DNA from: an uncultured Clostridia bacterium
Lineage (GTDB): Bacteria > Bacillota > Dehalobacteriia > UBA4068 > JAAVYR01
DNA: 36,448 nucleotides
NCBI GenBank assembly: GCA_946562005.1
Contig: CAMNVD010000003.1
Span: forward strand, 1 to 36,448
Direction of reading: 5' to 3'
Below the pieces are notes generated by a model. That model searched no databases. It saw only the letters and a list, made by a program, of their open reading frames with translations, and was not told where the DNA came from. A program made the translations under genes and the position numbers. This document shows, piece by piece, positions 19,102 to 35,600 of this stretch. The stretch's first letter is position 1; the number at the start of each line of letters is the position of its first letter.

Positions 19102-19135
19102 GTTTTCCAGCGGGAGTAGAAAGGCGGTAGCAGAT

Positions 19136-19810: not shown

Positions 19811-19846
19811 ACAGCTTCTTCCCCACCCAAAGAAAGGAAGCTGACT

Positions 19847-20008: not shown

Positions 20009-20067
20009 CCCACCTGATGATGGCAAAGTTGGTTACTTGCCGAAATCCCCAATATGGGGATCGTGGG
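20009..20067 (+). ncRNA. Type I hammerhead ribozyme
   Basis: Stem I CCCAC/GTGGG, CTGATGA core, stem II GGCAA/TTGCC, GAAA, stem III TCCCCA/TGGGGA, AUC cleavage triplet (cut after 20062). Confidence 0.8.
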
Positions 20068-20099
20068 AAACCACAAAATCAAACAAGGAAGGTGATAAT

Positions 20100-20336
20100 G
20101 TGAAAATTGATAACAGTAAGTTGGATGTGTTGTTAGCCCGGCGTTGCATGACGATTGCAGACTTGCGAAAAGAAGCATCTTCACAAACCCTAACAAGAAT
20201 TCGACGGGGTGAAAGTGTAAAACCTATCACAGCCGGAAAAATCGCCCTTGCGTTGGGTGTGGATGTAACTGACATTATCGAAAATACCGCTGCAACGGTT
20301 GATAATGGTAAACAGGGGATTTCCGAAGCAAAATGA
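20100..20336 (+). CDS. Cro-like HTH protein
   Basis: GGAAGGTG RBS before GTG 20100; SSQTLTRIRRGESVKPITAGKIALALGVDVTDII. Confidence 0.75.
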   Translation: MKIDNSKLDVLLARRCMTIADLRKEASSQTLTRIRRGESVKPITAGKIALALGVDVTDIIENTAATVDNGKQGISEAK

Positions 20337-20433
20337 AACAGTTTGAACAATCGGCGGCAATGCTGCAACATTCGCCGCAAAATCAAAATCAGGATGAAGT
20401 TTTAGAAAATATAGGAAAGGGGGGATTGTTAAG

Positions 20434-22425
20434 GTGCTGACTTTAGAAGAAGTTGGAAGAATCATATTCAACAATGAATACTGGAAAGGCGGCAACGGCG
20501 GGAATTTCAAAGCCCCGTACAATAACAATGCCCCAAAGCCATTTGAAGAAGCCAAACAATACCGCTACATTTGCGGTGTAATTCAGGAATTTGTTGTTAT
20601 GGTGGATATTGATGATGAAGCCGCTTTTCAATGCAGATTGAACATTGCAAAAGCATTGAAGCAGCATTGTATTGTTATCAAATCACCAAACAAAGGCGGG
20701 CATTTTTATTGGTTCAATCGTGAGATGCAGCCAATCAAGAACAACAGCGGCAACAAAACGCTTCTGACATTGTACCCGGTAGATTATAAAACCGGAATAC
20801 GGCGAATTGAAAGCACCGGGGAAATTAAGAAAGCGAAGTGTGCAGCTTCCCTTTCAAAAGAAGATGGTTCTTTGCGTGAAATCCTCTATGCAAATATCCG
20901 GGAAGATGGAACGCTGGATGAAGTGCCGTTCTATGATTTGCCGCTGAAATCCGGCGCAAAGCATGAGTTCTTGAACATGGGTGAAGGTGACGGAAGGCAG
21001 GACGGGCTTTTTACTTACATGAACCCAATGAAGGCGGCGGGCTATTCCTATGAACAGTTCAAAGAAATTGCTGAATTGATTGAACAATTTGTGTTTGCCA
21101 TTCCTTTGGGTGATGAATTTGAAAATGCAATCCGGCGTGAAGCGTGGGATTCTGTTGATGCCGTAGATCAGGAACGCTTTTTCAGCAAGGGAAAATTCCT
21201 TCATAACAAGTTCGCTGATTATCTAATGGAGAAATACCATATTCGGAAAATCAACGGCTACATTCATAGCTACCAGAACGGGGTTTATATTCCGGGCTAT
21301 GATGCCATTGAAAAAGCCATGCTGAAAGAGATTTCCAGCTTGACACGGACAAAGCAAAATGAAGTGCTGAATTATATTCGGATTCAGGCAGCGGAAATCC
21401 AAAACAGCAAACCCGAACTAATACCGTTCAAAAATGGTTTGCTTGATATTGAACACACTGAACTATTACCGTTTTCCCCGGATTTGGTTGTCACCAATAT
21501 GATCCCGTGGGAATATCGCCCGGAAGCTGTTTCAGAATTGGTTGATGCAGTGCTTGACCGTCTTTCATGCAGGGATGCTGAAATCCGGGCATTGCTGGAA
21601 GAAGTCGGCGGTATGTGCCTTTATAGGGATAACACCATAGGAGGCGGCAAGGCGGTAATTCTGACCGGGGATAAATCCAACGGCAAAAGCACATTCATTT
21701 CAATGCTGCAAGCTATGCTTGGGGCTGACAATGTTTCAAACCTTGATTTTAAGGAACTGGATGGGAAATTTTCAACGGCTATGCTGTTCGGCAAACTGGC
21801 AAATTTGGGGGATGATATTTCAGACAGCTACAAGGAAGATGTTGCGATTTTTAAGAAGATTGTGACAGGCGAACCGATAAAGGCAGAGGAAAAAGGCAAG
21901 CCGCCCTTCAATTTCAAACCCTATGTGAAGCTGGTGTTTTCAGCAAACAGTATTCCCCGGATCAATGATTCAACGGGTGCAGCCTTGCGACGATTGCTGA
22001 TTATTCCCTTAAACGCAAAGTTTTCCGAAAATGATTCCGGCTATGATCCGCAAATTCGGTTGAAGCTATCACAGAAAGAAGCCGTTGAATATTTCATAGT
22101 GCTTTCGATTCAGGGCTTGCAGCGGGTGTTGACAACAAAGAAGTTCACTATTCCGGTAAAGGTGCAGGATGAAAAGGATTCCTATGAGAAAGAAAACAAC
22201 CCTGTTTTGGCATTCATTGATGAAATCGGTACAGATGAAATTATCAATGAACCTACTGCAAAGGTATATAGCCGCTATTGCGAATTTTGCCTTGCGAATG
22301 GATTTAAGGAAATGAGCAAGCTAACTTTTTCAAAGCGGATCAATCAGGCGTTGGGAACAAAAGTTACAACAGCACATACCGGAACGGGTAAAAATCGAAA
22401 ATCTATAAAAGTATTTTCGTTGTGA
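20434..22425 (+). CDS. Primase-helicase (prim-pol plus P4/D5-like SF3 helicase)
   Basis: VDIDD and KGGHFYW primase motifs; Walker A GDKSNGKS; ANLGDDI, FSAN and RRLLIIP motifs. Confidence 0.92.
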   Translation: MLTLEEVGRIIFNNEYWKGGNGGNFKAPYNNNAPKPFEEAKQYRYICGVIQEFVVMVDIDDEAAFQCRLNIAKALKQHCIVIKSPNKGGHFYWFNREMQPIKNNSGNKTLLTLYPVDYKTGIRRIESTGEIKKAKCAASLSKEDGSLREILYANIREDGTLDEVPFYDLPLKSGAKHEFLNMGEGDGRQDGLFTYMNPMKAAGYSYEQFKEIAELIEQFVFAIPLGDEFENAIRREAWDSVDAVDQERFFSKGKFLHNKFADYLMEKYHIRKINGYIHSYQNGVYIPGYDAIEKAMLKEISSLTRTKQNEVLNYIRIQAAEIQNSKPELIPFKNGLLDIEHTELLPFSPDLVVTNMIPWEYRPEAVSELVDAVLDRLSCRDAEIRALLEEVGGMCLYRDNTIGGGKAVILTGDKSNGKSTFISMLQAMLGADNVSNLDFKELDGKFSTAMLFGKLANLGDDISDSYKEDVAIFKKIVTGEPIKAEEKGKPPFNFKPYVKLVFSANSIPRINDSTGAALRRLLIIPLNAKFSENDSGYDPQIRLKLSQKEAVEYFIVLSIQGLQRVLTTKKFTIPVKVQDEKDSYEKENNPVLAFIDEIGTDEIINEPTAKVYSRYCEFCLANGFKEMSKLTFSKRINQALGTKVTTAHTGTGKNRKSIKVFSL

Positions 22426-22610
22426 TGGCACGATTGCGGCACGATTTGGCACTATTGGCGGCACTGTAAAAAGTAATAGAAGTCAATAATGGCACTGTTG
22501 GCACTGTTACGCAGAACTTCTATATAAGAAAAATGATGTTACTTTTATCATAATTTTTTAGAAATATAAGGATATATATAGAAACGCTTAAACCGTGCCA
22601 ACCATGCCAC
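22426..22610. repeat. Putative replication origin (GGCAC iterons around an AT-rich core)
   Basis: GGCAC at 22427, 22438, 22448, 22460, 22491 and 22500; AT-rich 22520-22590; inverted GTGCCA/ATGCCA at 22595 and 22604. Confidence 0.75.
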
Positions 22611-22619
22611 AAATGAATA

Positions 22620-22637
22620 TTGAAAATTAACTTTCAA
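22620..22637. promoter_or_regulatory. 18-bp palindromic site TTGAAAATTAACTTTCAA (copy 1)
   Basis: Exact copies at 24785 and 30182. Confidence 0.7.
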
Positions 22638-22652
22638 GAAAGGCGGTAAACT

Positions 22653-22862
22653 ATGGATCAGGTAAAGATGGAAGAACGCACAGAAATTGAAGGGGTGTTT
22701 TGCCCGTTCTCCGGTAGATTATGCCGGATGAATTGCAGATTTCTAATTGATGTTGAAGAAGGCTGCATAATTGAACAGGGTTGTAAAAACCTTGAACGGA
22801 TTCGGGAAACCCTTGATGAAATGCAGGAACAGGGATTTCAAAAAACAATATATGAGGATTGA
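22653..22862 (+). CDS. Small Cys-rich hypothetical protein
   Basis: GAAAGGCGG RBS; CPF...C...C...C pattern. Confidence 0.65.
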   Translation: MDQVKMEERTEIEGVFCPFSGRLCRMNCRFLIDVEEGCIIEQGCKNLERIRETLDEMQEQGFQKTIYED

Positions 22863-22879
22863 GAAAGGCGGTAAGCACT

Positions 22880-23146
22880 ATGTCAAATGAATTTGTATTG
22901 AACAGGGAAACAATGAACGAACTTGAAACATTTTCAGCGAAGTTTGAACAAATGCGGGGATTGGTTGAATTCCTGAAAGTATTTGTTTGGGGCGAAGTCA
23001 CTGAACGGCATGAAGGCAAGGAAATTGAAAGGCTTGGTTGCTTGGTGGATGCGCTTCTTGATGTATCAATCAGCCGGGAAAATAATTTAGAAACGATTAT
23101 CAAGAAAATCAACACCTTGCCCGATTCGGTAGAAAGTGGTGATTGA
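22880..23146 (+). CDS. Hypothetical protein
   Basis: GAAAGGCGG RBS before ATG 22880; tightly packed operon. Confidence 0.65.
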   Translation: MSNEFVLNRETMNELETFSAKFEQMRGLVEFLKVFVWGEVTERHEGKEIERLGCLVDALLDVSISRENNLETIIKKINTLPDSVESGD

Positions 23147-23314
23147 ATGAAAATCAGAGTTGCATATACAGAGGGCGAACAGGACAAGAAGAAACTGCTT
23201 GAAGAAGCTGCAAAAGCCCTGTTTCCTGATACCAAAGTGAGAGAAACAGCCCCGAAAAACGGCTTTTTACATACGGTTTTGACCGTGCCAAAGCCCGAAA
23301 ATACCACAAAATAA
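23147..23314 (+). CDS. Small hypothetical protein (55 aa, not in ORF track)
   Basis: Starts right after the upstream TGA; MKIRVAYTEGEQDKKKLLEEAAKALFPDTKVRETAPKNGFLHTVLTVPKPENTTK. Confidence 0.6.
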   Translation: MKIRVAYTEGEQDKKKLLEEAAKALFPDTKVRETAPKNGFLHTVLTVPKPENTTK

Positions 23315-23324
23315 GGTGTTTCAC

Positions 23325-23473
23325 TTGACGGATACCCCCTATATATGGTATAATTATCAAAAATAAATATGGCGTGAGTACCGCATACCCCGCTTGTGGG
23401 GCGTGTTAGTCTTGATTTCAAGGCATGGGAAGCAATCAGACGGAAACCGTCTTTTTGTTGCTCATGCCTTTTT
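23325..23473 (+). promoter_or_regulatory. sigmaA promoter with structured leader
   Basis: TTGACG-18bp-TATAAT (TGn extended); hairpin AAGGCATG...AGACGGAAACCGTCT...CATGCCTTTTT. Confidence 0.55.
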
Positions 23474-23505
23474 CATTTGGAAATTACAGAAAAGAGGTTA
23501 AAAAC

Positions 23506-24249
23506 ATGACGAAAGATCAGTTGAAAAAATATCTTGATGGCGTGATTGATGATATTCGCACCTTGTATATCAAGACACAGGAAAAGTTGCGGGAGATTCA
23601 AAAGAAAGCAAACAGCGAATGGACAACGGTTTATAATGTTCCGGTTCATATGACACCGGATCAGCAAGCGGCGAATGCGGCGGTTATGCAGGATGCCGCA
23701 AATAAACTGAATCAGGAATACAAAGAAGCTGTTGAAAAGGCAATTCAGGAAGCCACAGATACGATTGCAGCGGTGAAGAAATCTGCAATTCAGGATTTAA
23801 CCGCCGCTGAACCCGTTCCCACCGATATTCAGTTGCGGATGGCTGAACAGATCAAGAAAGAGTACAGAAACGGCAATAACGCCCTTTCCCTTGACCGGGT
23901 AAAGCAGTTTGAAGCTGATATGAATTATCATGTGGAAAATGAAACGGTGAAGGCATACCCCTTCTATTTGGCGGCTAAAGACCTGTTCCCGGATAATGGC
24001 GGCAATGCGGATATTCTGAACGCTGCATATATGAAGTTGTTCCCAGCGATTGCTGAAAAGCAGGATGTTCTTGATGGAATTGGAGAGTGTGAACGCTTTT
24101 TCAGGGCGGCAATTATCACACATAAACTTGATACGATTACCGCCATAAATTCAGAAGCAGATCAACTTGAAGTAATCCGTTTGAAGGAAGAACTTGCTTC
24201 ACTTGGCGAAATTGGAAGCCTGAATCAGCGTGTTATTCAATATTCATAA
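23506..24249 (+). CDS. Hypothetical helical/coiled-coil protein (247 aa)
   Basis: GAGG RBS before ATG 23506; Ala/Glu/Lys-rich helical sequence. Confidence 0.7.
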   Translation: MTKDQLKKYLDGVIDDIRTLYIKTQEKLREIQKKANSEWTTVYNVPVHMTPDQQAANAAVMQDAANKLNQEYKEAVEKAIQEATDTIAAVKKSAIQDLTAAEPVPTDIQLRMAEQIKKEYRNGNNALSLDRVKQFEADMNYHVENETVKAYPFYLAAKDLFPDNGGNADILNAAYMKLFPAIAEKQDVLDGIGECERFFRAAIITHKLDTITAINSEADQLEVIRLKEELASLGEIGSLNQRVIQYS

Positions 24250-24268
24250 GAAAGGCAAGGTGTAGATC

Positions 24269-24439
24269 ATGTTCAAGGTATCAAAGAAACCGAAAACCCC
24301 TAATATGATTTGGGATAGTGAAAAGAACTGTTTGCTTTGCAAATTTGTAAAGGGCATTTTTGAAACTGATGATGCGGGTGTGGCTGATAAGCTGGAAAGC
24401 ATGGGGCATACAGTAACAGAGATTCCGAATGAATCTTAA
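24269..24439 (+). CDS. Small phage-like hypothetical protein (56 aa, not in ORF track)
   Basis: AAGGTG RBS; MFKVSKKPKTPNMIWDSEKNCLLCKFVKGIFETDDAGVADKLESMGHTVTEIPNES. Confidence 0.65.
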   Translation: MFKVSKKPKTPNMIWDSEKNCLLCKFVKGIFETDDAGVADKLESMGHTVTEIPNES

Positions 24440-24511
24440 CTTTTCAAATGGGGGTTGTGGGGACTTTCTCGCAATCCCCATTGTGCTATCAAAATGAAAG
24501 GTGTGAAGCAG

Positions 24512-24784
24512 ATGAAAGCATTAGACAGGCTTATTATTAAGGCGAAGAAGAAATGCGGTGTTGACCGTTTGGAAGTCGGCTTTATTTCCCCATCTGAAAA
24601 GCAAAAGGGGAAATGGGTTGCAAGGGGTGACATTTGGAACGGTGTACCCGGCAACGGTGTTAGGTCAATTATGTATGGCGAATATGATTCTGTTGAAGAA
24701 GCGGAAAAGGCTTTGAACGAGTTAGCGGAACAATACCCCAATAATAAAGATGTTTTTATATTCATTGAAAATATTCTTGAATAA
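24512..24784 (+). CDS. Hypothetical protein
   Basis: AAGGTG RBS before ATG 24512. Confidence 0.65.
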   Translation: MKALDRLIIKAKKKCGVDRLEVGFISPSEKQKGKWVARGDIWNGVPGNGVRSIMYGEYDSVEEAEKALNELAEQYPNNKDVFIFIENILE

Positions 24785-24802
24785 TTGAAAATTAACTTTC
24801 AA
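24785..24802. promoter_or_regulatory. 18-bp palindromic site (copy 2)
   Basis: TTGAAAATTAACTTTCAA. Confidence 0.7.
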
Positions 24803-24822
24803 AAGTGAAAGAAGGTGATTAT

Positions 24823-25032
24823 ATGGCAAGGCGAAACTTAAAACTTGATACCCCGGATAATATCAGAAAAGCCCTTGCTAAAGTGGCAAATATGGTTTAC
24901 AAAGGTGAACTTGATACAAAGATTGTAAACAGCTTTATTCTTGCCTGTAACGCTATTTTAAGCGGCATACGCACGGATGAACAGGAAAAGAAGATTGCTG
25001 AATTGGAACGGATTATAAACGAAAATGAATAA
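24823..25032 (+). CDS. Small helical hypothetical protein (possibly small-terminase-like oligomerisation fragment)
   Basis: GAAGGTG RBS; helix-turn-helix followed by coiled coil (EQEKKIAELERII); function is a guess. Confidence 0.6.
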   Translation: MARRNLKLDTPDNIRKALAKVANMVYKGELDTKIVNSFILACNAILSGIRTDEQEKKIAELERIINENE

Positions 25033-25061
25033 TCCAATTCAGCGGAAAGGAGATTCGGAGC

Positions 25062-25259
25062 ATGAGAAAACCAATACCCATTTCCGAAACACTGATTCTT
25101 CAAGAAGAAAAACGCCTTCGGGAACAGGCTGGAAATATTATCGCCGCTAAAGAAATTGGAATCAGTCAACAGAGCATTGATAAAATGATTGCTTGTTTCT
25201 CCATTTCAAAGGCGTATTATGACGATCTGAAAAGGCGGTATGAAGAAAATGGAAAATGA
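25062..25259 (+). CDS. Hypothetical protein
   Basis: GGAG RBS; overlaps the sigma factor start. Confidence 0.6.
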   Translation: MRKPIPISETLILQEEKRLREQAGNIIAAKEIGISQQSIDKMIACFSISKAYYDDLKRRYEENGK

Positions 25260-26214
25260 AGAATTGGTTGAACAAATACAAGCCGGGATTAAGCCAACTG
25301 AAAATATGGAACAGCTTTATTTGCAGAACCGTTCTTTCATTTACCAGCAGGCAAAGAAATATGCCGCTTATGCTGATATGGATGATTTAATGCAGGAAGC
25401 CTATTTTGGACTACATGAAGCCGTGAAGCATTACAAGCCCGATAAAGAAACAAAGTTCCTTACTTATCTTCCCTTCCGGCTGCAAAAGGCGTTTCGCCGT
25501 TATATCGACAATAACGGACATACCAAAAGAATTCCGGTTCATTTGGTTCAACGAATTTCAAAGTATAGGAAATATATTTCTGAACAGGCAAAGCAAGGTG
25601 TTGAACCGTCTGATTTTGAAATATGCCGGGATTTGGAATTGTCTGAACAGCAGCTTAAAGATTTACGGAAGGCAATGCGTGAAGCGGAATGTATCAGCAC
25701 AAGCGATTTTGTACCCGGTTTAGATAATATGACCGTGGAAGAATCCCTTGCCGATCCGCTGGGTATGGAAGAACAAGTGATTGATGAAGTCGCAAGAGAA
25801 CAAGCGGAAAGCCTGATCTGGAAGATTGTTGATGAACTGGAAGAACGGCAAGCAGAAGTGATTGTTGGGCGGTATAAAGAATTGGCTACTTTGAAAGAAA
25901 TCAGCAAGCGGTTGAATCTTTCATATCAGCGTATCAGGCAAATAGAAAAGAAAGCCCTATACATTCTACAAAGCAAGCATGAAATCAGCGATATAGCCGA
26001 AATATACGGTTATATGAACGCTTACCGGGGAACAGGGTATCAGGCTTTCAAGAATGGCGGTTCTTCCGTTGAAAACGCAGCTATCAAGCATATAGAAGGA
26101 GAAGCGAGGATCAAGGCAATGCAGCAGAGAATCAAGCAGCAGAAAACGGAAATTCTAACTACTTTGAATATGGATGAACTATTTTCAAAGGTTCTGAACC
26201 TTGCTTCACAGTAA
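25240..26214 (+). CDS. Sigma-70 family RNA polymerase sigma factor
   Basis: Region 2 DDLMQEAYFGLHEAVKHY...KFLTY, KRIPVHL, region 4 TLKEISKRLNLSYQRIRQIEKKAL. Confidence 0.88.
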   Translation: MKKMENEELVEQIQAGIKPTENMEQLYLQNRSFIYQQAKKYAAYADMDDLMQEAYFGLHEAVKHYKPDKETKFLTYLPFRLQKAFRRYIDNNGHTKRIPVHLVQRISKYRKYISEQAKQGVEPSDFEICRDLELSEQQLKDLRKAMREAECISTSDFVPGLDNMTVEESLADPLGMEEQVIDEVAREQAESLIWKIVDELEERQAEVIVGRYKELATLKEISKRLNLSYQRIRQIEKKALYILQSKHEISDIAEIYGYMNAYRGTGYQAFKNGGSSVENAAIKHIEGEARIKAMQQRIKQQKTEILTTLNMDELFSKVLNLASQ

Positions 26215-26230
26215 AGAAAGGGGATTTGAA

Positions 26231-26512
26231 ATGTATAAGCATCAGGAACAGTTTTTGAAAATTACACAGGAGTATAACAGACAGATCAGTTTGCTTTTGG
26301 GTATGGCAGAAAAGGCTAACCGAAAGCAAATTGAACGGCTAACGCCAATTTTGCAGAAATTGAAAAGTTCACTTCAAAAATTGATAAATCAGCAAGAGCG
26401 ATTCAAACAGTGCGTTCATAATCCAGGGAAATATAAAGCCCTCTTGCAGCCTTATATTTCTTTGCTGGATGAAACAAAGGCAGAGATTGAAAAGCTAGGT
26501 GAAAAGACTTGA
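26231..26512 (+). CDS. Hypothetical coiled-coil protein
   Basis: AAAGGGG RBS before ATG 26231. Confidence 0.6.
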   Translation: MYKHQEQFLKITQEYNRQISLLLGMAEKANRKQIERLTPILQKLKSSLQKLINQQERFKQCVHNPGKYKALLQPYISLLDETKAEIEKLGEKT

Positions 26513-26940
26513 ATCCCAATATTGAAGTTATTACGCCGGAATTGTGGGCGGTAAACAGTGGCTACATAAAAGCCGGATGGATTCGGGAATTATCGCCTGT
26601 TCCGGGGCTGGAAAGCGTAAACAAATATGCTTCCCTGACAAATGACGGTATTATGATCCTGAAAAAAGAATCAGAGTTTTACCCGATATTGAAACAGCTT
26701 GTACCTAAAATTATGCTGCATACGGATGAAGAATTGCAACTTTGCCACAAGTTGAATCATAAGGCGGTGCTTGATGATTATGAAAAGCTATATTTGAATG
26801 TTATGGAATGGGAAATTGAAAGGCGGCGTGTTCGGGCGGATTATCTGAACCGCTTCCCCCGCCCAACATTGAAAAACAGGATCAGAAAATTATTGCAGAA
26901 GGTAGGTGAAAAATTTGGCTACTATCAGAACAGCGATTGA
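26509..26940 (+). CDS. Hypothetical protein
   Basis: Overlaps both the upstream stop and the TMP start. Confidence 0.65.
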   Translation: MNPNIEVITPELWAVNSGYIKAGWIRELSPVPGLESVNKYASLTNDGIMILKKESEFYPILKQLVPKIMLHTDEELQLCHKLNHKAVLDDYEKLYLNVMEWEIERRRVRADYLNRFPRPTLKNRIRKLLQKVGEKFGYYQNSD

Positions 26941-29500
26941 ACTTTATGATGCGTTTTCTGCACCGCTTATGAATGTAATTCAAGCGGTAAATCAGGGAGT
27001 TTCTGCAATGGAAACCATGCACGCAACCATGAATGAACCTGTTTCCGTGTCGATTGCGGACGGGATTGCAGAGCAAATGAATCAGGCGGTGCAAGCTATT
27101 GAAGAAGCAAGGGCGGCATTGTCTGAACCTGTTACCCATGAAAATACAAGCGTTACTTGGGATAGCCTCACAATGCCAACCTTCACAAATTCCGGGGCTG
27201 ACCGTTTCCAGCAGGAAGTTCAGAGTGCAAACGCCATGTTGGAGCAACTGAACCAGACCCAACGGAATATAGCGGCACAGGCTGAACGGGTGCAACTGTT
27301 CCCTTCAAATATGGTGAATGATATGAATACCATGCAAAGCCGTATTCAAGGCATTCAGGAAAGAATTCAAACCATAGAAAATAACCCCTTGAATTTGGGA
27401 ACAGATCAAGCTAACGCTGAATTGGAGTATTTGCGTAACAATTTGAATCAGGCAGTTCAGACACAGAATGAAATGAACGCTGCAATTCAGAACATGGACA
27501 TTACAACCGCCAATGATGCGTATATCCGGCTTTCAAATACCATTTCAGGAACAGAAAGATATATCCGTGATAATGTTGACGAACAAGGGCGGTTCAACCG
27601 TGAAATTGAAGAAGGCACGAATGAAGCCAATGAACTAATGCAGACAATCAAGGGGGCGGTTGCGGCATACGCTACAATTCAAACCCTTTCAGCGGCGTTG
27701 AACTTATCGGATCAGCTTACTTCCACAACCGCCCGCTTGAATTTGATGAATGACGGGCTGCAAACCACACAGGACTTGCAGAACATGATTTATCTTTCAG
27801 CGGAACGGGCAAGGGGCAGCTATCAGGCAACCGCTGATGCCGTTTCCAAACTTGGACTTATGGCGGGTGATGCGTTCAGCAGTTCGGAAGAAATCATTGC
27901 CTTCATGGAACAGGTGAATAAGCAATTTACCATTGCTGGAACGGAAGCGGCGGGCATTGATGCCGCTATGTTGCAGCTTACACAAGCAATGGGTTCAGGC
28001 GTTCTTCGTGGCGAGGAATACAACAGCATTTTGGAGCAAGCCCCGAATATCATTCAGGCGATTGCTGATTATATGGAAGTTCCAAAGGGGCAATTAAAGG
28101 ATATGGCAGCGGAAGGACTAATCACCGCTGACATTGTAAAGGCGGCTATGTTTGCGGCGGCTGATGATACCAATGCAAAGTTTGAACAGATGCCGAAAAC
28201 CTTTTCGCAAATTTGGACTTCTTTTCAGAATACCGCTTTGATGGCATTTCAGCCCGTTCTTCAAAGAATGAATGAAATTGCCAATAGTGAAGCGTTTCAG
28301 GGCTTTGTGAACAATGCGATTGAAGCCCTATCAATGGTGGCGGGCATTGCCCTTGAAATCTTTGATTTGCTTGTGGGCGTTGCTGAAATCGTTGGTGAAA
28401 ATTGGTCGTGGCTATCCCCTATCATTTACGGTGTAGCCGGGGCTTTGGCTGTTTACTACGGCTGGTTGCTGTTGACAAAAGGGGCAGCGTTAGCAACCGC
28501 AGCGGCACAAGGTGCATTGACACTTGCTAAAATGCTTGCCGTTCCTGTTTACGCCGCTTTAACGGGTGCGACAATGGCAGATACGGCGGCACAATGGGGG
28601 CTGAATTCTGCAATGTACGCTTGCCCTATCGTGTGGATCATTATTCTTATAATCGCCCTGATAGCCCTATTCTATGCGGCGGTGGCGGCGGTGAATAAAT
28701 TCGCCGGAACTTCCGTTTCCGCAACGGGTATAATTTGCGGGGCGTTCATGGTTGCCCTTGCCTTTATCGGCAATATCTTTGTTGCCCTTTGGAATTTGGT
28801 TGTGGATGTGTTCGTGCTTATCTATAACCTTGTGGCAACCGTGGCAAACTTTATCGGCAATGTATTCACCGATCCTATCGGTGCGGTTTGTCGATTGTTC
28901 TTTGATTTGGCTGATACCGTGCTTGGAATTCTTCAAGCGTTGGCTTCGGCTATTGATGCAATCTTCGGTTCAAACCTTGCGGGAAGTGTTCAGGGTTGGC
29001 GTGATTCTCTTGGCGGTTGGGTTGATGAAACCTTCGGTAAGGGTGATGAAGTAATGGCAAAAATGAACGCTGACGATATGAAACTTGGGCGGTTTGAATA
29101 CGGGGCAGCTTGGGATGCCGGGTATTCCTTTGGTGAAGGCATTGATGAAAGCATTGCGAATTTCGATCCTTCCAGCCTGTTTGATACCAATGTACCGGGT
29201 GCGGGTGACTACGCCGATTTGAGCAATTACGGGGCGGGGCTTGCCGGGGATGTTGGCGATATAGCGGGCAACACCGGGGCAATCAAGGATTCAATGGATA
29301 TTACAGAAGAAGATTTGAAATATCTTCGTGACATTGCCGAACAGGAAGCGATAAACAGATTTACAACCGCTGAAATCAATATAGAAGCACCAATAACCAA
29401 CCAAATTTCTAAAGATGTTGATTTGGATGGAGTAGTTGACGGGCTGACGGGTGCAGTAAATGAAGCGGCTGACATTATAGCGGAAGGCGTACACATTTAG
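26915..29500 (+). CDS. Stand-alone tape measure protein (~861 aa) carried by the satellite
   Basis: Tape-measure core (SAERARGSY...QLTQAMGSGVLRGEEYNSILEQAP), hydrophobic segments, C-terminal RDIAEQEAINRFTTAE...AEGVHI; AGGTG RBS before TTG 26915. Confidence 0.92.
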   Translation: MATIRTAIELYDAFSAPLMNVIQAVNQGVSAMETMHATMNEPVSVSIADGIAEQMNQAVQAIEEARAALSEPVTHENTSVTWDSLTMPTFTNSGADRFQQEVQSANAMLEQLNQTQRNIAAQAERVQLFPSNMVNDMNTMQSRIQGIQERIQTIENNPLNLGTDQANAELEYLRNNLNQAVQTQNEMNAAIQNMDITTANDAYIRLSNTISGTERYIRDNVDEQGRFNREIEEGTNEANELMQTIKGAVAAYATIQTLSAALNLSDQLTSTTARLNLMNDGLQTTQDLQNMIYLSAERARGSYQATADAVSKLGLMAGDAFSSSEEIIAFMEQVNKQFTIAGTEAAGIDAAMLQLTQAMGSGVLRGEEYNSILEQAPNIIQAIADYMEVPKGQLKDMAAEGLITADIVKAAMFAAADDTNAKFEQMPKTFSQIWTSFQNTALMAFQPVLQRMNEIANSEAFQGFVNNAIEALSMVAGIALEIFDLLVGVAEIVGENWSWLSPIIYGVAGALAVYYGWLLLTKGAALATAAAQGALTLAKMLAVPVYAALTGATMADTAAQWGLNSAMYACPIVWIIILIIALIALFYAAVAAVNKFAGTSVSATGIICGAFMVALAFIGNIFVALWNLVVDVFVLIYNLVATVANFIGNVFTDPIGAVCRLFFDLADTVLGILQALASAIDAIFGSNLAGSVQGWRDSLGGWVDETFGKGDEVMAKMNADDMKLGRFEYGAAWDAGYSFGEGIDESIANFDPSSLFDTNVPGAGDYADLSNYGAGLAGDVGDIAGNTGAIKDSMDITEEDLKYLRDIAEQEAINRFTTAEINIEAPITNQISKDVDLDGVVDGLTGAVNEAADIIAEGVHI

Positions 29501-29506
29501 CCCCAC

Positions 29507-29540
29507 GATCCCCCGGTGAAATATCCGGGGGATTTTTCTT
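29507..29540 (+). terminator. Intrinsic terminator after the satellite TMP
   Basis: ATCCCCCGG-TGAAATAT-CCGGGGGAT-TTTTCTTT. Confidence 0.8.
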
Positions 29541-29543
29541 TAC

Positions 29544-29572
29544 TTGACTATTCGTTACCAATAGTATATAAT
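29544..29572 (+). promoter_or_regulatory. sigmaA promoter of the AbrB-like gene
   Basis: TTGACT-17bp-TATAAT; contains TTACCAATAGTATATA, also found at 18995-19010. Confidence 0.75.
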
Positions 29573-29613
29573 AAATTCAAAGTAATTGAACACATTTCAA
29601 AGGGGGTGTAAGT

Positions 29614-30177
29614 ATGGAAACACGAAAGGGAAATATGATTTTTGGGAAAGCTGGCGGTAATGCAAGCCGGAATTCTTATACTTGTAAAGTATCTGTTCCC
29701 AAAACATGGGTTGACCGAATGGGGCTAACCCATGAACAGCGGGAAATAGAACTTGCCTTTGATGGAGATAGGATCACGATTGATAGACCGGAACACAGCC
29801 CGGTAAAACATACCCCATTAGCAAGCAATCAGAAAATCCGGCGTTTTGCCTTGCTTTGGATGCAGATGTATAAAAACCACGCTTCCACACCCGGCTTCTA
29901 TTTTGAAGATGTTTCCTTTGTTGGTGAAGGGCTTGCAGATTTAGGCTTTGAAATGGATTGTGGGGAATCCTTCAAGGCAGCTTTCCCAAACTGTAATTTA
30001 GGCGATTGCGAAGCGTGGAAACGGATTGTGAATCAGATTGACAGTGTGCAGCTTTTGGGGGATGCGATTTTCTCACAATGGCGGTACTGGAATCATTGGA
30101 GTAATGCACCAATGGAAGAAGCTGATTTTGAATGGTTTGCGCTTGCCTTTTCCCGGCTGGCTGAACTGGCGGCATGA
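29614..30177 (+). CDS. AbrB/MazE-like DNA-binding domain fused to an unknown domain
   Basis: KVSVPKTWVDRMGLTHEQREIELAFDGDRITID swapped-hairpin pattern; Trp-rich C-terminal domain. Confidence 0.7.
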   Translation: METRKGNMIFGKAGGNASRNSYTCKVSVPKTWVDRMGLTHEQREIELAFDGDRITIDRPEHSPVKHTPLASNQKIRRFALLWMQMYKNHASTPGFYFEDVSFVGEGLADLGFEMDCGESFKAAFPNCNLGDCEAWKRIVNQIDSVQLLGDAIFSQWRYWNHWSNAPMEEADFEWFALAFSRLAELAA

Positions 30178-30181
30178 TGTT

Positions 30182-30199
30182 TTGAAAATTAACTTTCAA
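30182..30199. promoter_or_regulatory. 18-bp palindromic site (copy 3)
   Basis: TTGAAAATTAACTTTCAA. Confidence 0.7.
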
Positions 30200-30344
30200 T
30201 CTGTTTTCCCCTTTCATATTGCAAGCCCCTAACCAAAGTATCAAAGCCTTTCTGTTTCCGCTTATATAGCCGTTATATGAACCTCTGATATAATATTCCT
30301 TGCCGTTTGTGCGGCAAAATCTTATATTTCAGGAGGTTCAGAAG

Positions 30345-32015
30345 ATGAACAGAAACAGAAGAACAGTATTTTTCAGGATCATGGCAACAATTATGTGTGC
30401 CGCTTGCGTGGTGGTTATGTGTTCGGGCTATCAGGCAAGGGCAGAAACAACCGCTGATTTCCCCATAGCGAAAAATGGGAATCAGCTTCTTCAAGCGATT
30501 GCCGCCGCTGATGATGGCGATACAATCGGAATTTCTGATATGATTGCCTTTTATGAGGGGGTAACGATTGGAGCAGAGGACAAACGAATTACTATTGTTC
30601 GGATGAATGAGAATGCTTTTTTGTCCTTTACCGGATCGGATTCTTCTTTGGTGCAAAATGTTGTATTTGACGGGGGAAACATAGAATCCAATTACCCTAT
30701 GATTAGTTCACAATGTTCTTTAACCGTTGAAAACAGCATTTTTCAAAATTGCATTTGCAATGGTGAAGGTGCTGCACTTGGATTTTATTCTGATGAACTT
30801 AACATTGCAAGTTGTGTTTTCAAAGATAATTGGGCATATCGTGGCGGTCATGTTTACATAGCCACTTTGAGAGAAGCAACAATTTCAAGTTGCACTTTTA
30901 AGAATGGAGAAGCCAAAGAACAAGGTGGGGCATTGTATGTAACAGGTGAAACCAAAATAAGAAATAGTGTTATTACTAACAATCGGGCGAACTATGGCGG
31001 TGGCATTTATCACGGCAGTCAAAATTGTATTATATCCGGCACAAAGATTTATTATAATTCGGCTAACATTTATGGTTCAGATTATGCTACTGAAACTCCT
31101 TATTTCTATTTTGCCGAATCGGTTGCTGAACTTACGGAATTATTTGCACCTGATAATTTGAAACCTGTTGAATGGGAGATTTCTAACAATAGCGGGGTTG
31201 ATGGATTTAAGTTGATTTTGGAAACACTTACACCTATTGAACCTGAACAACCCACAACTCCAGAAAAACCGGAAACGCCGACAGAACCAGAAAACCCGGA
31301 TGAACCCGACAAGCCAACCGAACCGGAAAACCCCGAGAACCCCGAGAACCCGAATCAGCCGGACACGCCCACAGAGCTGGGGGAGAATGAGCCGCCCAAA
31401 GATGAATCGGGAACAGGAACGGACAAGCCCGCAGAAGGTGAAAATAAGCCTTCCGAACCTGAAACACCCCCGGATGATACCCAAAATAAGGGGGATGAAC
31501 AGCCGCCCGCCGATAACCCGGAAGAAAAACCCGGTGTAAGCGGTTCAGGGAACGCCCCGGCAACCCCTTCCGATTCAACGGGGAATAATGGCGGCAATAA
31601 TACCAGCAATTCAACAAGCACCACCACAACCAGCGACAACAGAACAACGGATAATTCCGACAATTCCCGGTATTCCAGCACCAGCGATTCTAACAATACA
31701 TCCACGGTGAATAATTACTATCAGCAGGAAAAACAACCTTCCAGCAGCGGGGAATCGGTTCAAACAATCGTTGTCCCTGTTGGCAACACTGGAAACGGCG
31801 AACCGCTGCAACAAACAATCAGAGTTGAAAACCCGGAAGGAACAACGGCAACGGGAAGTTTGGAAGGCTTGACCTTGAATATCAATGTGAACACAGCTTC
31901 ACAGGATCAGGCGGCAAATACTTCCCCTGTTCAGCAAAGCGGAATATCTTGGTATCAAGCAATCGTTTTGTGCCTTCTGTCTGCTATTTTGGTTTGCTTG
32001 TTGAAAAGCCGCTGA
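30345..32015 (+). CDS. Surface protein: signal peptide, right-handed beta-helix, Pro/Glu stalk, C-terminal membrane anchor
   Basis: AGGAGG RBS before ATG 30345; FxxN...GG(A)L/I repeats; PENPD/PTEP repeats; Ser/Thr/Asn-rich tract; terminal hydrophobic helix ending KSR. Confidence 0.8.
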   Translation: MNRNRRTVFFRIMATIMCAACVVVMCSGYQARAETTADFPIAKNGNQLLQAIAAADDGDTIGISDMIAFYEGVTIGAEDKRITIVRMNENAFLSFTGSDSSLVQNVVFDGGNIESNYPMISSQCSLTVENSIFQNCICNGEGAALGFYSDELNIASCVFKDNWAYRGGHVYIATLREATISSCTFKNGEAKEQGGALYVTGETKIRNSVITNNRANYGGGIYHGSQNCIISGTKIYYNSANIYGSDYATETPYFYFAESVAELTELFAPDNLKPVEWEISNNSGVDGFKLILETLTPIEPEQPTTPEKPETPTEPENPDEPDKPTEPENPENPENPNQPDTPTELGENEPPKDESGTGTDKPAEGENKPSEPETPPDDTQNKGDEQPPADNPEEKPGVSGSGNAPATPSDSTGNNGGNNTSNSTSTTTTSDNRTTDNSDNSRYSSTSDSNNTSTVNNYYQQEKQPSSSGESVQTIVVPVGNTGNGEPLQQTIRVENPEGTTATGSLEGLTLNINVNTASQDQAANTSPVQQSGISWYQAIVLCLLSAILVCLLKSR

Positions 32016-32030
32016 TTTTGGCTTTATATG

Positions 32031-32077
32031 GGGTTTTCCCCCGCAGTCTATAACTTCATAGGTTGCGGGGGAAACTC
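32031..32077. terminator. Hairpin after the surface protein gene
   Basis: GGGTTTTCCCCCGCAG...TTGCGGGGGAAACTC. Confidence 0.55.
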
Positions 32078-32287
32078 TCTATATAGGGCTTATATGAGGG
32101 CGTAGGGAGCAAGGGAAACCATGCTTCAACCTTTGCTTTTTGATTGTCTGAACGGGCGAAAGGCGGTGTTGTAAATTTGTTGCAAATACCCCTGAAAAAA
32201 TGCAAAGTTTCACAGAGCATTATATATTGAACCCGCATAAAATCAGGGCTTTTCACGCCTTGCATAGCATTGAATTTTGAACTATTT

Positions 32288-32300
32288 TATGGTAAAATAA
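32288..32300 (+). repeat. attR core TATGGTAAAATAA (also the extended -10 of the downstream promoter)
   Basis: Identical to 17199-17211; TTGAAT(32270)-17bp-TAAAAT(32293). Confidence 0.85.
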
Positions 32301-32319: not shown

Positions 32320-32524
32320 TGACTCGGGGTCTGTTGGGCAGGCGTCAAGGCGGACAGATGTCGGGATGAGGGAATCCGGTGAGAATCCGGAGCAATACCC
32401 GTTGCCGTATGTGCAGGAGTTTGCAGTTCGTGGCGTGAGCCGGTCATTGAGGGGAAACTTTTGAGAAGGCGGAGCTGTAAGCGTTGGGATTTTTTCTTGA
32501 AACTGTACGAGCCGGAAGACCTAT
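32320..32524 (+). ncRNA. Cobalamin (B12) riboswitch
   Basis: AGGGAATCCGGTGAGAATCCGGAGC...GCCGTA, CATTG...GAAGG, B12 box GAGCCGGAAGACCT at 32509-32522. Confidence 0.88.
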
Positions 32525-32589
32525 GATGTTTATAGGCTTGTTTTGGTGCGTCCAAAATTAGCGAGAAAATGTGTTCCGCAGAAAAGTTC

Positions 32590-32629
32590 GGCTGCGGCAG
32601 TGTTTGTATACGCTGCCGCAGCCTTTTTT
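32590..32629 (+). terminator. Riboswitch expression-platform terminator
   Basis: GGCTGCGGCAG...CTGCCGCAGCC-TTTTTT. Confidence 0.85.
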
Positions 32630-32682
32630 GTTTTTTGCAGGGATACGCCTATTTGCGGGAAGACAAAAGAGGAGGAATATTT

Positions 32683-35600
32683 ATGAGAAAAACAAAGGTG
32701 TTTCTTTTGCTGTGGGTATTCATGTTGTTCCTTTGTTTATGGAGCGGTATGGCTTGGGCGGCTGAGGTACCTGTTTCCACTGCTGAGGAATTTGCCGCAA
32801 TGTCTGCGGACGGCAGCTATGTGCTGGAGGCCGATATTACCATTCGTGCGCCTTGGGGCGATATGAGTACGCCTTTTCAAGGTAGCTTCAATGGGAATGG
32901 CCACAAGATTACCTTAGACATCCAGGCGACTGCTGCTTACCAAGGGGTATTTGCTGTTTTGGATGGCGCAACGGTGGAGAATCTATTGGTCGATGGGGAG
33001 ATTCATACGACCCTGGGCTATGCGGCAGGTATTGCAGCAAAAATGACCAATAGTACCGTGAGAAACTGCGGCAGTGAAGTGATGATTGTTTCTACTGGGA
33101 ATAATAGCACTAATTTTGGTGGTATTGCTGGTTGGGCTAGTGGCAGTACCATAGAAGGGTGCTACAGCAATAGTGCCATTAGCGGAAAAATCAAAAATGT
33201 AGGCGGTATTGTAGGACAAACCCAAAGCGTTGGTTGTATCATACGAAATTGTTATAATTTAGGTGATATTACCTCTACTGGTACTTCTGCAGTGCGGGCA
33301 GGCGGCATCGTGGGCTATGGCAACAAAGCTGGTACGATAGAAAACTGTTATACTGCTGGCGTCATTGATAATACTGTTCAGAGCGGGGCCTTTGCTGGGT
33401 ATCTAACGGGGACTACTGCGGAAAATCTGAAAAGTTGTTATTATTTCACAGCAGGCCATAGCCAAGCAGTGGGATTTGCTGTTTCTGGTTCTGATACTAC
33501 TGGTATTACAGCTAAATCCAAAGAAGATTTAAAGGGGTTAACGGTGGATTTAGGACCGGCGTTTGCAGAGAATCCTAAAGGAGGCTATCCTATTCTTACC
33601 TGGCAGGTGGTAAGCGCTCCAGAACCGGCAAAACCAAGCATTGCTATTGTATCTAGTAATGGGGATATTCTCTGGGCAGAAAAAGGCGGTAATCACGAAA
33701 ATGACACGACCTTAAAAGTTACTTATAAAGAAATGGGTGACGGGACGCCTGCTGTTACCTGGTCTGTTGATGATACGGAAATTATCAAAGGGCAACTGGC
33801 GGAAAATAACGGTGACTATATCGTGACAGCCCAAAAAGGCGGTGTGGCTACGGTAACTGCTACAGTGGAATATGAAGGAGAAATCTACACAGCATCTTGT
33901 GAGATTAGGGTAGTTCCTCATTTTACCACTGTAGAAATTAAGAATATGGAATCTGCATATGCTGGAAATATTGCGGTGGGACAAACTGTCACTGCTGTGG
34001 CAAATACTTTTGGTGGAGCGGAATTTGATGCAACAGCGTATCCGGGCCTTTCTCTGGATTATCAATGGTATCGTTATGAGCCCATAGCAAATCAAGTAAC
34101 AATGATTTCTAGGGCCACTGGGAAAACTTATACCATTACAGAGGATTTTCAAGAGGGGGATAAGATTGGTGTTTCTGTCTATTGTAATGGGCAAGAAGTT
34201 CATTCTTATGTAGATGGCCAAAAAACTGTCCGCTCGGCAGATTATGGTAAGCTATATGCCATTGCCTATGGGGAAGATGTTATGAACTTGCCGGTGGATG
34301 TGAAAGAAGATATACAGTTGATGTTGCCTTTCTCTGTAACCAGAGATGACATTACTGCCCAAATAGAATGGAGCGGCTTCAATGCAATCATCGCTGCTGA
34401 TGGCGGTGTAACTCGTCCGAAAAGCGGGAAAATACAAGTGACCTTACGGGCAAAATTTATCTACGGTGATGCCTTCTGTAACCGTGATATAAAAATCACA
34501 GTGTGGTCTGATGAGGCGATAGATGCTGATGTTAACGATAAACAAATCATATTAAAAGAAGCTCTTGGCTCTTTGGGCAGTTCCTACACCATGTATCCAG
34601 TCTATGGCAAAGACAGTAATATAAATACCATGTTGTCAGAGGCATTGGCAGCAAAAGGCTATGCGGACATTACTGCTTCTGTAAAAACTGTGCAGGAAAT
34701 CTATGGCGGTGCTGCTATTAGGGAGAATGGTGATATTGTCTATTTCTATGCAGAGCCGAATCTTTTGCCGGTTATCAAGCATGGCAGTTATCGAGTGACC
34801 TTTACTTTGGAAAAAGATGGTGTAGCGCTGGATTATGAAGATGTGCCTGTTATCATTTATTGGGATAGAGACCTGGTAAAGGCAGTGATGACCAGTGAAA
34901 TCTTAGATAAGGTTACACTGGATAGTGAAAACTTACTAACAGGGAATATTTCTTTGCCCAAGGTGGTAGACGGTAAACGCTGGACGCAAATTTCTTGGCA
35001 ATCCTCTAATGACCGTGTGTTATCCATCAGCAGTGAAAATCAAACTACGGCTGATACGCTTTTTGCTCCTTATGTGGGGGTAGTAAAACCAGGACAGGCC
35101 GAGCAATCTATTACCTTGACGGCAGCTTTTACCTTCCAGTTTACCAATGATGTGACGGGCCGGGAGGAACCTATCGTTCTCTATAAAACCTTTGATATGA
35201 CGGTAGCACCGCTTGATGCAGAACAAGCGGCAGCCATTCAAGCAGAACTATGGGCTAAACTAGACCAAGGCTTTGCAGCCAAAGGCTTACGGGATGCCGT
35301 GACAGGAGAACTGTTAGCATCAGATGCAAATGGTGTTTACACCGTAGGGAATGATATACAGTTGCCTACTACTAGAGATTTCGGGGTAGATGGTAAGTAT
35401 TATCCGATTACCATTACCAGTGATGATGAGACAGTCGCAAAAGCGCCTGATGTGGCAAATGCTGCTCGAGTAGAAATCTATCGTCCTGGGGTAGGACAAC
35501 CGGACGCTATGGCAACGATTACTGTAACTATGCAGGATAAGGATACTAGTGTGGTGGCTTCCCGCACCTTTACCATCTCGGTATCAGCACTGACCCAGGC

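Follow-up and report, generated by a model that had tools for sequence, protein, structure and literature searches.

The window analysed here, a stretch of 36,448 nucleotides (nt) from an uncultured Clostridia bacterium of the rodent gut, is one whole 36.4-kb contig (CAMNVD010000003.1) of the assembly GCA_946562005.1, which has 1.23 Mb in 138 contigs and is 87% complete. It carries a 15.1-kb island (17199-32300) lying between two copies of the 13-nt direct repeat TATGGTAAAATAA, and the subject of this work is a gene of that island encoding a full-length phage tape measure protein (TMP), together with the small operon to which it belongs. The island ends and the genes of the operon are the following, where L numbers denote related loci and X numbers public sequencing runs.

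17199-17211: attL, left copy of TATGGTAAAATAA; in runs X1, X4 and X14, contigs start or are interrupted at 17199-17201 and have different flanks
25240-26214, plus strand: sigma-70-family factor with regions 2, 3 and 4, not of the extracytoplasmic function (ECF) type (PF04542, PF04545; phrog_351, E 7e-39; TIGR02997/02393)
26201-26512, plus strand: p103, small coiled-coil-like protein, kept in L001, L012, L018, L023 and L083-L087
26509-26940, plus strand: p143, directly 5' of the TMP gene and overlapping its start by 26 nt
26915-29500, plus strand: TMP, 861 amino acids (aa)
29507-29534, plus strand: intrinsic-terminator-like hairpin (10 pairs, 7 of them GC) with a T-run, ending the TMP operon
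32288-32300: attR, right copy of TATGGTAAAATAA; homology to L018 stops at 32299, and in X1, X4 and X14 the contigs stop at 32298-32300

The TMP matches the Pfam family TMP_3 (PF20155; E 2.7e-43, 148.4 bits against a cutoff of 41), PHROG 1068, annotated as tail length tape measure protein (E 4e-249 over aa 166-863), and TIGR02675 (E 5e-19). The open frame extends over 26906-29500 and would give 864 aa from a GTG codon; the better start is the TTG at 26915, which has the ribosome-binding site (RBS) GGTAGGTG 6 nt upstream and agrees with the start of the homologues. An earlier reading made from the letters of the window alone, hereafter the sequence-only reading, had described an intact 861-aa TMP with its own terminator inside a 15-kb element bounded by att sites and devoid of sheath, tube, chaperone, baseplate and capsid genes, and this description was borne out: the 20 open reading frames (ORFs) of the island, scanned with Pfam and/or PHROGs, gave no match to families of sheath, tube, chaperone, baseplate, capsid, portal or terminase proteins. 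The island TMP gene therefore stands outside any tail module, with p143 and p187 as its neighbours, whereas its closest relatives lie inside sheath-tube-XkdN-TMP-XkdP modules. The sigma gene is the first of the operon and is kept 5' of p143-TMP in many relatives. Contigs of the DNA runs X1 and X4 that match the TMP gene from about its start (window 26803-26916) carry unrelated upstream sequence, so this 5' end of the TMP gene is found in more than one gene context there.

The boundaries of the island were evaluated with a second copy and with public reads. The copy of Acetatifactor muris DSM 23669 (L018) shows DNA homology to the island of 92-97%, ending at 32299, and beyond the right end it has a similar repeat core followed by different host DNA. 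Four public rodent-gut runs, which come from three studies, cover the island and not the flanks of the window, and their contigs break at the island ends into other sequence. Positions 17199 and 32300 are the true ends of the element, independently confirmed by the A. muris copy and by the public runs. The island is also a compositional outlier, with a tetranucleotide correlation of 0.71 with the rest of the genome. The window genome belongs to a family of only three genomes, of 1.2-1.6 Mb, and the A. muris copy resides in a genome of 6 Mb; an island that is 92-97% identical in such different hosts suggests a recent transfer or else a mis-binned contig, although the tailocin part of the window matches the composition of the bin. 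p143 was not found in the two other genomes of the window's family. Direct terminal repeats, which would point to circular or packaged forms, are absent from all 39 contigs checked. Contigs of the RNA libraries X14 and X15 span the island including the TMP gene; large apparent skips from 22868/23025 to 30178/30179 were discarded as artefacts, since their 21-22-nt sides match a repeated 18-mer.

The sequence-only reading considered the element a phage satellite, an assignment that the island anatomy and its recurrence in relatives uphold, and it proposed a search for integrase-primase elements having this TMP but no other tail genes. Related islands were found in two sets of loci, five anchored on the TMP and 49 on p143. 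The TMP-anchored set comprises 78 loci from species-representative genomes, among which 61, with TMPs of at least 600 aa, show the ordinary p525-sheath-tube-XkdN-TMP-XkdP..XkdU module, three are unclassified and nine have truncated or incomplete TMPs and were excluded from the tree described below. The remaining five have the window architecture, namely L001, L012 (Pseudoflavonifractor), L018 (A. muris), L023 (Faecalibacterium gallinarum) and L058, and their common order is sigma-(p103)-(p143)-TMP-(p187)-(p571). Within contig reach, an integrase is present in L012, L023 and L058, an XRE repressor in all five but L018, whose contig ends just 5' of the sigma gene, a primase in L001 and L012, and a different primase/helicase in L023. 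The p143-anchored set consists of 32 IMG/VR contigs and 17 species genomes, four of the latter being the same places as L001, L018, L023 and L058. The TMP gene starts between -31 and +280 nt from the end of p143 in 31 of the 32 contigs (the other ends 242 nt past p143) and follows p143 in 16 of the 17 genomes (the other ends 81 nt past it); p143 is at the position of the chaperone in 47 of the 49 loci. Sheath and tube homologues occur in none of the 49 and an XkdN homologue in one (L139), and the majority have a repressor, a primase, a TerS (terminase small subunit) or TerS-like gene and a sigma gene, arranged in the same order. Among the named hosts of p143 are Faecalibacterium, Anaerofilum, Anaerosporobacter, Anaerotignum, Vallitalea, Alkaliphilus, Lutispora, Desemzia and Bacillus. 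Because the p143-TMP pair recurs in similar islands with integrase, repressor, primase, sigma and in some cases TerS genes, the window element is not a one-off prophage wreck.

The packaging gene and the extent of the tail module vary among these loci. TerS is clear in L001 (PF03592, E 5e-34; phrog_51, E 6e-42) and L058 (phrog_51, E 6e-45), a weaker TerS-like match (phrog_2538) is found in L012 and L023, and the gene is also present in L108, L110, L113 and L134, with TerS-like genes in L087, L133, L139, L142 and L147; TerS queries against the window gave no match. Regarding the module, the window belongs to a type with the TMP only, and no baseplate hub gene was found in it; the TMP is accompanied by DUF2577/XkdR in 10 of the 32 IMG/VR contigs and in L058, L133 and L145, and XkdQ is present in L139 and L142. 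In L083, L086, L103 and L114 the TMP is followed by the XkdP..U baseplate genes, the left side being satellite-type (sigma/p103/p143), with no sheath or tube. A rearranged tail module beside a related integrase was observed in L038 (6981-11317), where an integrase 58% identical to that of the island is separated by 1.9 kb from a TMP gene of which the C-terminal 434 aa are left; XkdP-U come next, and 5' of this TMP gene sheath and tube are missing.

The ratio dN/dS, calculated by the Nei-Gojobori method for TMP pairs, was 0.11-0.33 between satellites when L018 was left out, 0.39 between the window and L018, and 0.07-0.25 between phages. The satellite TMPs are under purifying selection and the protein is intact in every satellite examined, which, together with its recurrence in related islands, supports the TMP as a conserved, selected component and not debris. 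These values bear directly on the possibility that the island is a decayed prophage, in which the TMP and p56, a small ORF located upstream, would be leftovers of a degraded myovirus that retained its integrase and replication genes. The prophages L033 and L002 are complete in their structural part, where genes for portal, minor head protein, scaffold, major capsid, adaptors and neck protein precede the tail genes sheath-tube-XkdN-TMP-XkdP..U, and p56 is 63-64% identical over 49-50 aa (E 1e-20) to proteins of L033 and L065. Its relative, a 97-aa protein whose gene comes right behind that of the major capsid, is present in six phage-type (helper-type) loci; among satellites, p56 is found besides the window only in L083 and L084, the window's closest relatives. 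The sequence-only reading missed this homologue of a fragment of a head-module protein. The island thus holds two phage-derived pieces in phage order, p56 and then the TMP, and its copy has lost TerS, as a decaying prophage might. Yet when 122 ORFs of four helper-type prophages were compared with the island at E<=1, the TMP and p56 alone matched, with nothing left of adaptor, sheath, tube, XkdN or XkdP, and p56 is out of context. In addition, sigma, p103, p143 and p187 are non-phage genes that are conserved with the TMP, down to 29-40% identity, across the 49 p143-anchored loci. Considering also the selection on an intact TMP, the decayed-prophage explanation is largely refuted, and we judge it very improbable.

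The relation between satellite and phage TMPs was examined in a tree of 71 rows, in which those of the window, L001, L012 and L023 constitute a clade (SH-aLRT 100) nested among phage-module TMPs, that of L018 is placed beside the L033 prophage TMP and that of L058 is distant, so that the satellite label changes at least three times. A second tree, restricted to the N-terminal 200 residues and enlarged by 11 further satellite TMPs, has at least four changes forced by supported branches. Satellite TMPs are thus clustered yet nested among those of phages, for which no fewer than 3-4 exchanges are required. Along the protein, aa 241-520 and 561-800 of the window TMP are 98-100% identical to the L033 and L002 prophage TMPs, except for L002 at 761-800, and the DNA identity between the window and L033 is 92.2% over 27332-29493, with similarity stopping at the stop codon. 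The beginning of the protein is different, since aa 41-80 are 30-35% identical to phage TMPs and 82% to those of the satellites L012 and L023. About 37 extra residues after aa 82 are present in each of the nearest phage TMPs and in L018, and in the window's clade the N-terminal part falls short of that of the nearest phage TMPs by 33-50 aa. By these alignments the window TMP is a mosaic, with a satellite-type N-terminus (approximately aa 1-200) and a phage-type core and C-terminus. In L018 the stretches flanking the TMP gene are 92-100% identical to those of the window, but its TMP is of the L033 type.

Such mosaicism could also be expected if the TMP were kept mainly as a patch of homology, a bait or gene reservoir that lets the island recombine with phage genomes and travel on them. 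Hybrid contigs that change from satellite to phage context exactly at the TMP, as well as the loose ends at the TMP start in X1 and X4, with their other upstream contexts, are in line with this idea. Homology alone, however, would not keep an 861-aa frame open (dN/dS 0.1-0.3) nor a dedicated partner gene upstream, and the hybrid contigs may be assembly chimeras; we therefore give this explanation very little weight.

Another possible destination of the island TMP lies in the same window, which contains the following features outside the island.

1213-15281: complete PBSX/diffocin-like tailocin cluster, with LexA-like repressor, small regulator, sheath, tube, XkdN, TMP, XkdP-XkdU, 707-aa fibre, holin and M23 peptidase
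5846-7372, plus strand: tailocin TMP, 508 aa, outside the island (PF20155, E 3e-31; phrog_1068, E 5e-93)
15410-17137: TrpB-like host gene, between tailocin and island
32330-32540: cobalamin riboswitch RF00174 (50.3 bits), directly after attR
32569-36447: surface protein exceeding 1293 aa, downstream of the cobalamin riboswitch (domains aBig_2, GLUG and DUF4430)

The island thus has a TrpB-like gene on its left and a B12-regulated gene on its right. In the tailocin cluster, the stretch between the regulators and the sheath gene holds neither head nor packaging genes, and the composition of the cluster fits the host genome (tetranucleotide correlation 0.96). The sequence-only reading had noted a close match between the C-termini of the two TMPs, with a core that also aligns, and saw both XkdK/M-type myophages and the resident tailocin as targets of the island protein. 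The homology is real and the motifs it quoted do appear in the alignment, but it is modest, with 200 identities in 632 positions (32%; E 4e-70), climbing to 56% in the last 79 aa. If the island TMP entered the adjacent tailocin, it would lengthen or disable it, and in favour of this it can be said that the two elements are 1.9 kb apart in the window genome, that both TMPs belong to the same family and that the most similar part is the C-terminal, hub-binding end. Nevertheless, the adjacency is not conserved, as the four runs and A. muris have other flanks; the tailocin TMP has the longest terminal branch among the non-divergent rows of the tree (1.27); and four of the five other satellite hosts have no sheath homologue detectable with the one query used. 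The tie to the tailocin was thus not sustained, and a role as tailocin modifier seems to us most doubtful, whereas myophages of the XkdK/M type are a plausible source and target, as the nearest TMPs reside in such prophages.

Taken together, these findings lead us to favour, with a confidence somewhat better than even, the hypothesis that the window island represents a Bacillota family of satellites resembling phage-inducible chromosomal islands (PICIs) that substitute their own TMP into the tails of helper phages. In the proposed mechanism, the integrase, the XRE repressor with a divergent SprT-like/Cro-like pair and the P4-family primase would maintain and copy the island, and the rightward operon sigma-p103-p143-TMP would be expressed upon activation of the element. 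When a helper myovirus of the XkdK/XkdM (PBSX-like) type grows, the satellite TMP would replace that of the helper on the helper-encoded baseplate hub, inside helper tube and sheath, giving rise to chimeric tails for satellite-carrying particles, by analogy with the PICI-like elements (PLEs) of Vibrio. p143 is probably a dedicated partner of the TMP, a chaperone or specificity factor, because it is directly upstream, overlaps the TMP start and is found at the position that XkdN occupies in phages. Recombination would keep the TMP core and C-terminus, the hub-proximal end, matched to helper TMPs, with the N-terminal ~200 aa remaining specific to the satellite lineage. Tape measures span about 1.5 Å per residue, and an N-terminus shorter by 33-50 aa would correspond to a tail roughly 5-7 nm shorter.

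A bolder version of this hypothesis, possible but with the odds clearly against it when all its parts are taken jointly, is that p143 and the TMP constitute a portable two-gene module with which Bacillota satellites take over the tail core, p143 replacing the helper XkdN. A p143 of new fold would load only the satellite TMP, through its N-terminal ~200 aa, onto helper baseplates; the satellite particles would gain a tail core of their own while helper tail assembly is starved, and recombination would re-match the hub-binding part of the TMP to the circulating myophage. Owing to such re-matching, one satellite lineage could use helpers in different bacterial families, in agreement with the near-identical copies in a host with a 1.2-Mb genome and in A. 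muris. If this were true, the variants with DUF2577 or with a whole baseplate would represent steps towards tail-forming satellites, a mirror image of the capsid-forming PICIs.

Several observations weigh against the substitution of helper TMPs. The window assembly has no TMP beyond those of the island and the tailocin, no second TMP was found at E<=1e-10 in five other satellite-bearing genomes, and a sheath homologue was present in only one of these five with a single sheath query. The window copy is devoid of TerS and its closest relative, the near-identical contig L084, keeps only a 59-aa remnant in the slot of the window ORFs p69, p95 and a 55-aa ORF; the sub-lineage is possibly impaired, or it may rely on a different packaging route. 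The homologues of p143 fall into 74 clusters, every one of them unnamed and without Pfam family, and the protein resembles no known chaperone in sequence or fold, as BLASTP showed no similarity to XkdN and its AlphaFold2 (AF2) model (mean predicted local distance difference test, pLDDT, of 78.5) had no match in PDB or BFVD at E<=0.001, while the protein atlas yielded no usable hit; moreover, the satellite L012 has no p143. The RNA-library contigs cover genes of both strands evenly, as DNA carry-over would. All relatives are metagenome-assembled genomes, metagenome contigs or draft genomes, and the four loci in which the satellite-type left side meets XkdP..U may be real intermediates ('half-tail' satellites), products of recombination between satellite and phage at the TMP, or chimeras made in assembly. 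Regarding the satellite sigma factor, no close homologue was detected in five helper-type genomes, where the best matches, of 32% identity, are probably host sigma factors.

As no second TMP was found in the host genomes searched, the helper probably comes from outside, either infecting the cell as a phage or residing as a prophage in other strains; the other option is that the TMP is directed at incoming phages. In this last case the island would be a defence or decoy, whose TMP, perhaps together with p143, acts as a dominant-negative poison of the tail assembly of invading PBSX-like myophages and protects the population, with no transfer of a satellite. A TMP core near-identical to those of phages could compete for hub, tube and chaperone, four of the five other host genomes have no resident helper or tail genes, and the window copy, as said, has no TerS. 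Tail-assembly defences that act on TMPs are known as well, namely Tab, a prophage defence (PMC10884400), and Rta (PMC12987554), according to the text of these articles. On the other hand, a full-length TMP of ~860 aa under phage-like purifying selection throughout is more than a decoy needs, and the relatives retain TerS, a packaging gene that is useless in pure defence. PADLOC returned no defence family beyond generic similarities to the MzaA sigma domain and, at the TMP N-terminus, to the LmuB coiled coil. Besides, both roles coexist in the PLE, as described in PMC12987554. We consider a purely defensive island unlikely, and keep helper tail substitution as the preferred hypothesis.

The remaining genes and signals of the island are as follows (HTH, helix-turn-helix; TM, transmembrane segment).

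17300-18457, minus strand: tyrosine integrase (PF00589, E 3e-17; phrog_1, E 2e-41)
18511-19056, minus strand: XRE/CI-type HTH protein with putative repressor function, divergent from the rightward genes (PF01381, E 2e-13; phrog_8/3/4)
19136-19810, plus strand: SprT-like protein with Zn-metalloprotease domain (PF10263, E 3e-7; phrog_6361, E 4e-48)
20001-20336, plus strand: p111, small Cro/C1-type HTH protein (PF13443, E 2e-6), kept in related islands
20434-22425, plus strand: P4-family/D5 primase-helicase (DUF5906, D5_N, Pox_D5; phrog_864, E 1e-144; TIGR01613, E 5e-61)
22653-23314, plus strand: p69, p95 and a 55-aa ORF with no family matches, in the TerS position of relatives
23503-24249, plus strand: p274, helical, 247 aa from the ATG at 23503, located after TerS in L001; no named family
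24269-24439, plus strand: p56, 56-aa ORF related to the N-terminal half of the 97-aa phage head-module protein
24455-25259, plus strand: p109, p75 and p65, small ORFs 5' of the sigma gene; p65 and p75 kept in related islands
29544-29572, plus strand: sigma-70-like promoter for p187, TTGACT-17-TATAAT, 11/12
29614-30177, plus strand: p187, AbrB/MazE-like N-domain and helical C-domain (phrog_2329)
30300-32015, plus strand: p571, predicted surface protein with signal/TM, GG-rich beta-helix-like repeats, Pro/Thr/Glu-rich linker and C-terminal TM

Between the repressor gene and the rightward genes, sigma-70-like promoters scoring 12/12 and 11/12 face each other at 19003-19078, and the SprT-like protein may be the protease partner of the XRE repressor. 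The homologue search with p274 retrieved unnamed protein clusters only. Downstream of the TMP terminator, p187 is probably a DNA-binding regulator, as suggested by its AF2 model (pLDDT 89.9), in which the N-domain resembles the AbrB N-domain of 1yfb (Z 5.1, rmsd 2.1 Å over 48 aa) and matches MazE with a probability of 0.77; a structure search with the C-domain gave generic helical-bundle matches only, with Z<=7.2. Its homologues constitute 119 clusters and the gene is directly 3' of the TMP in the satellites of the TMP-only type. The terminator/promoter stretch 29525-29575 repeats parts of the integrase/repressor control region (18418-18446 and 18995-19015) with 83-95% identity, a resemblance that hints at a common control of p187 and the repressor. 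p571 had no family matches in Pfam, PHROG, PADLOC and TIGR scans, and its homologues are found after the TMP in L001, L012, L018, L023, L058, L091-L096, L102, L111, L113, L139 and L140. Placed behind their own promoter and past the TMP terminator, p187 and p571 are probably cargo expressed in the lysogen. Proteins with a p187-type C-domain elsewhere have it fused to Macro, ADP-ribosylglycohydrolase, PIN, HD or GAF domains, and the minor head protein (SPP1 gp7-like) of L033 (661-3171) and L002 (793-3300) has a C-terminal ADP-ribosyltransferase-like domain (phrog_16625, E ~1e-31); the two could form a conflict pair, or coincide by chance.

An inverted repeat, TTGAAA-N6-TTTCAA, has four sites in the window against 0.2 expected (19173, 22620, 24785 and 30182; eight strand-wise matches), all of them in the island. 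Three of the four copies are identical, two of these being 15-20 nt 5' of an RBS, and in the distant relatives L105, L109 and L110 the repeat is found just past a TATAAT box; judging from these positions, it may be an island operator or a hairpin of the 5' untranslated region. The idea of an operator shared by satellite and helper, with about three copies per helper-type prophage locus, was dropped as a regulatory link because the helper copies sit in coding sequence (tube gene, pre-sheath ORF), in terminator stems or before a reverse-transcriptase gene. In L033, the region 17323-20614, with a 582-aa fibre-like protein followed by a reverse-transcriptase gene, resembles a diversity-generating retroelement, and an exact copy of the island 18-mer TTGAAAATTAACTTTCAA is located just 5' of the reverse-transcriptase gene.

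Satellite TMPs were first demonstrated in 2025-26 in one Vibrio system. If our hypothesis is true, the strategy would be widespread in Gram-positive Bacillota of the gut and the environment, in a minimal form that requires the TMP and one partner and no capsid genes, and p143 would be a new protein family which, by its conserved gene position, appears tightly linked to tail-core assembly. The recombination signature ties the satellites to a defined group of myophages, the PBSX-type of Clostridia, and the family bears on gene flow in the gut microbiome and on the ways in which parts that govern tail length and injection are exchanged. As A. muris DSM 23669 holds a copy with flanks 92-97% identical, a cultivable entry point to the family is available. 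A literature search that covered main texts retrieved no description of this Bacillota satellite family.

Among known systems, the PICIs and SaPIs (Staphylococcus aureus pathogenicity islands) are Gram-positive islands of ~10-20 kb in which an integrase occupies one end, and which have a divergent master repressor, a primase module and a TerS-type packaging gene; PICIs are induced, packaged and transferred by helpers, and act on capsid size or packaging. To our knowledge, classical PICIs carry no tail genes and PICIs no virion structural genes. The window island, of ~15 kb, is like them in its att boundaries, the integrase at one end, the divergent repressor, the primase module, the TerS of its relatives and the absence of lysis and capsid genes, and differs in its conserved late module sigma-p143-TMP, in the lack of TerS in the window copy and in the presence of an intact TMP and the p56 fragment. 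The satellite P4, which exploits the contractile-tailed P2, uses its own transcription factor to act on late genes and remodels the capsid with Sid and Psu; we know of no tail gene in P4. The island shares with it a P4-family primase (TIGR01613), and its sigma factor may be regarded as a functional analogue of the P4 transcription factor.

The sequence-only reading called the island an undescribed tail-hijacking satellite, which does not hold for the concept, since TMP-bearing satellites that form chimeric tails have already been shown for PLEs and reported for EPIPs. In the EPIPs of Mycolicibacterium aichiense, a TMP and longer tails are reported and the authors propose tail hijacking; the text of the preprint also lists terminase small subunit, adaptor, stopper, scaffold and major capsid genes and a serine integrase (PMC12822802, preprint). 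The window family differs from that description in having none of the EPIP head genes and a TMP slightly shorter than those of phages. Putative tmp genes in PLE-like elements and in capsid-forming PICIs (cf-PICIs) are indicated in a figure legend of PMC12987554; as far as that legend goes, cf-PICIs are similar in being PICI-type islands with predicted TMPs, and some overlap with the window family is possible. cf-PICIs have their own capsid, portal and connector genes, and none of these was found in the window island by the ORF scans or the comparison with the 122 prophage ORFs. The closest parallel is offered by PLE11 and PLE4 of Vibrio cholerae, satellites of phage ICP1, which according to the article text encode their own TMP, chaperone for tail assembly (TAC) and hub of the baseplate (BhuB) that replace the ICP1 counterparts in PLE virions (PMC12987554, Nature 2026). 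There, PLE11 virions were reported to contain the TMP and hub of the PLE and not those of ICP1, with tails ~10 nm shorter, and Rta to block the ICP1 TMP. As described, PLEs inhabit a different phylum with unrelated gene content; their chimeric tails were shown experimentally, while the window family is known from sequence; and the TMPs of PLE11 and ICP1 share 20% identity, whereas blocks of the window TMP reach 98-100% identity with those of phages. The window island also has a sigma factor heading the operon, and neither a recognisable TAC, nor a hub gene, nor an Rta-like inhibitor was identified in it. Despite these differences, and within what the article describes, both are integrated satellites without sheath or tube that carry a full-length TMP homologous to the helper-type protein and somewhat shorter, and some relatives of the window island add a baseplate-proximal gene (DUF2577/XkdR) or more.

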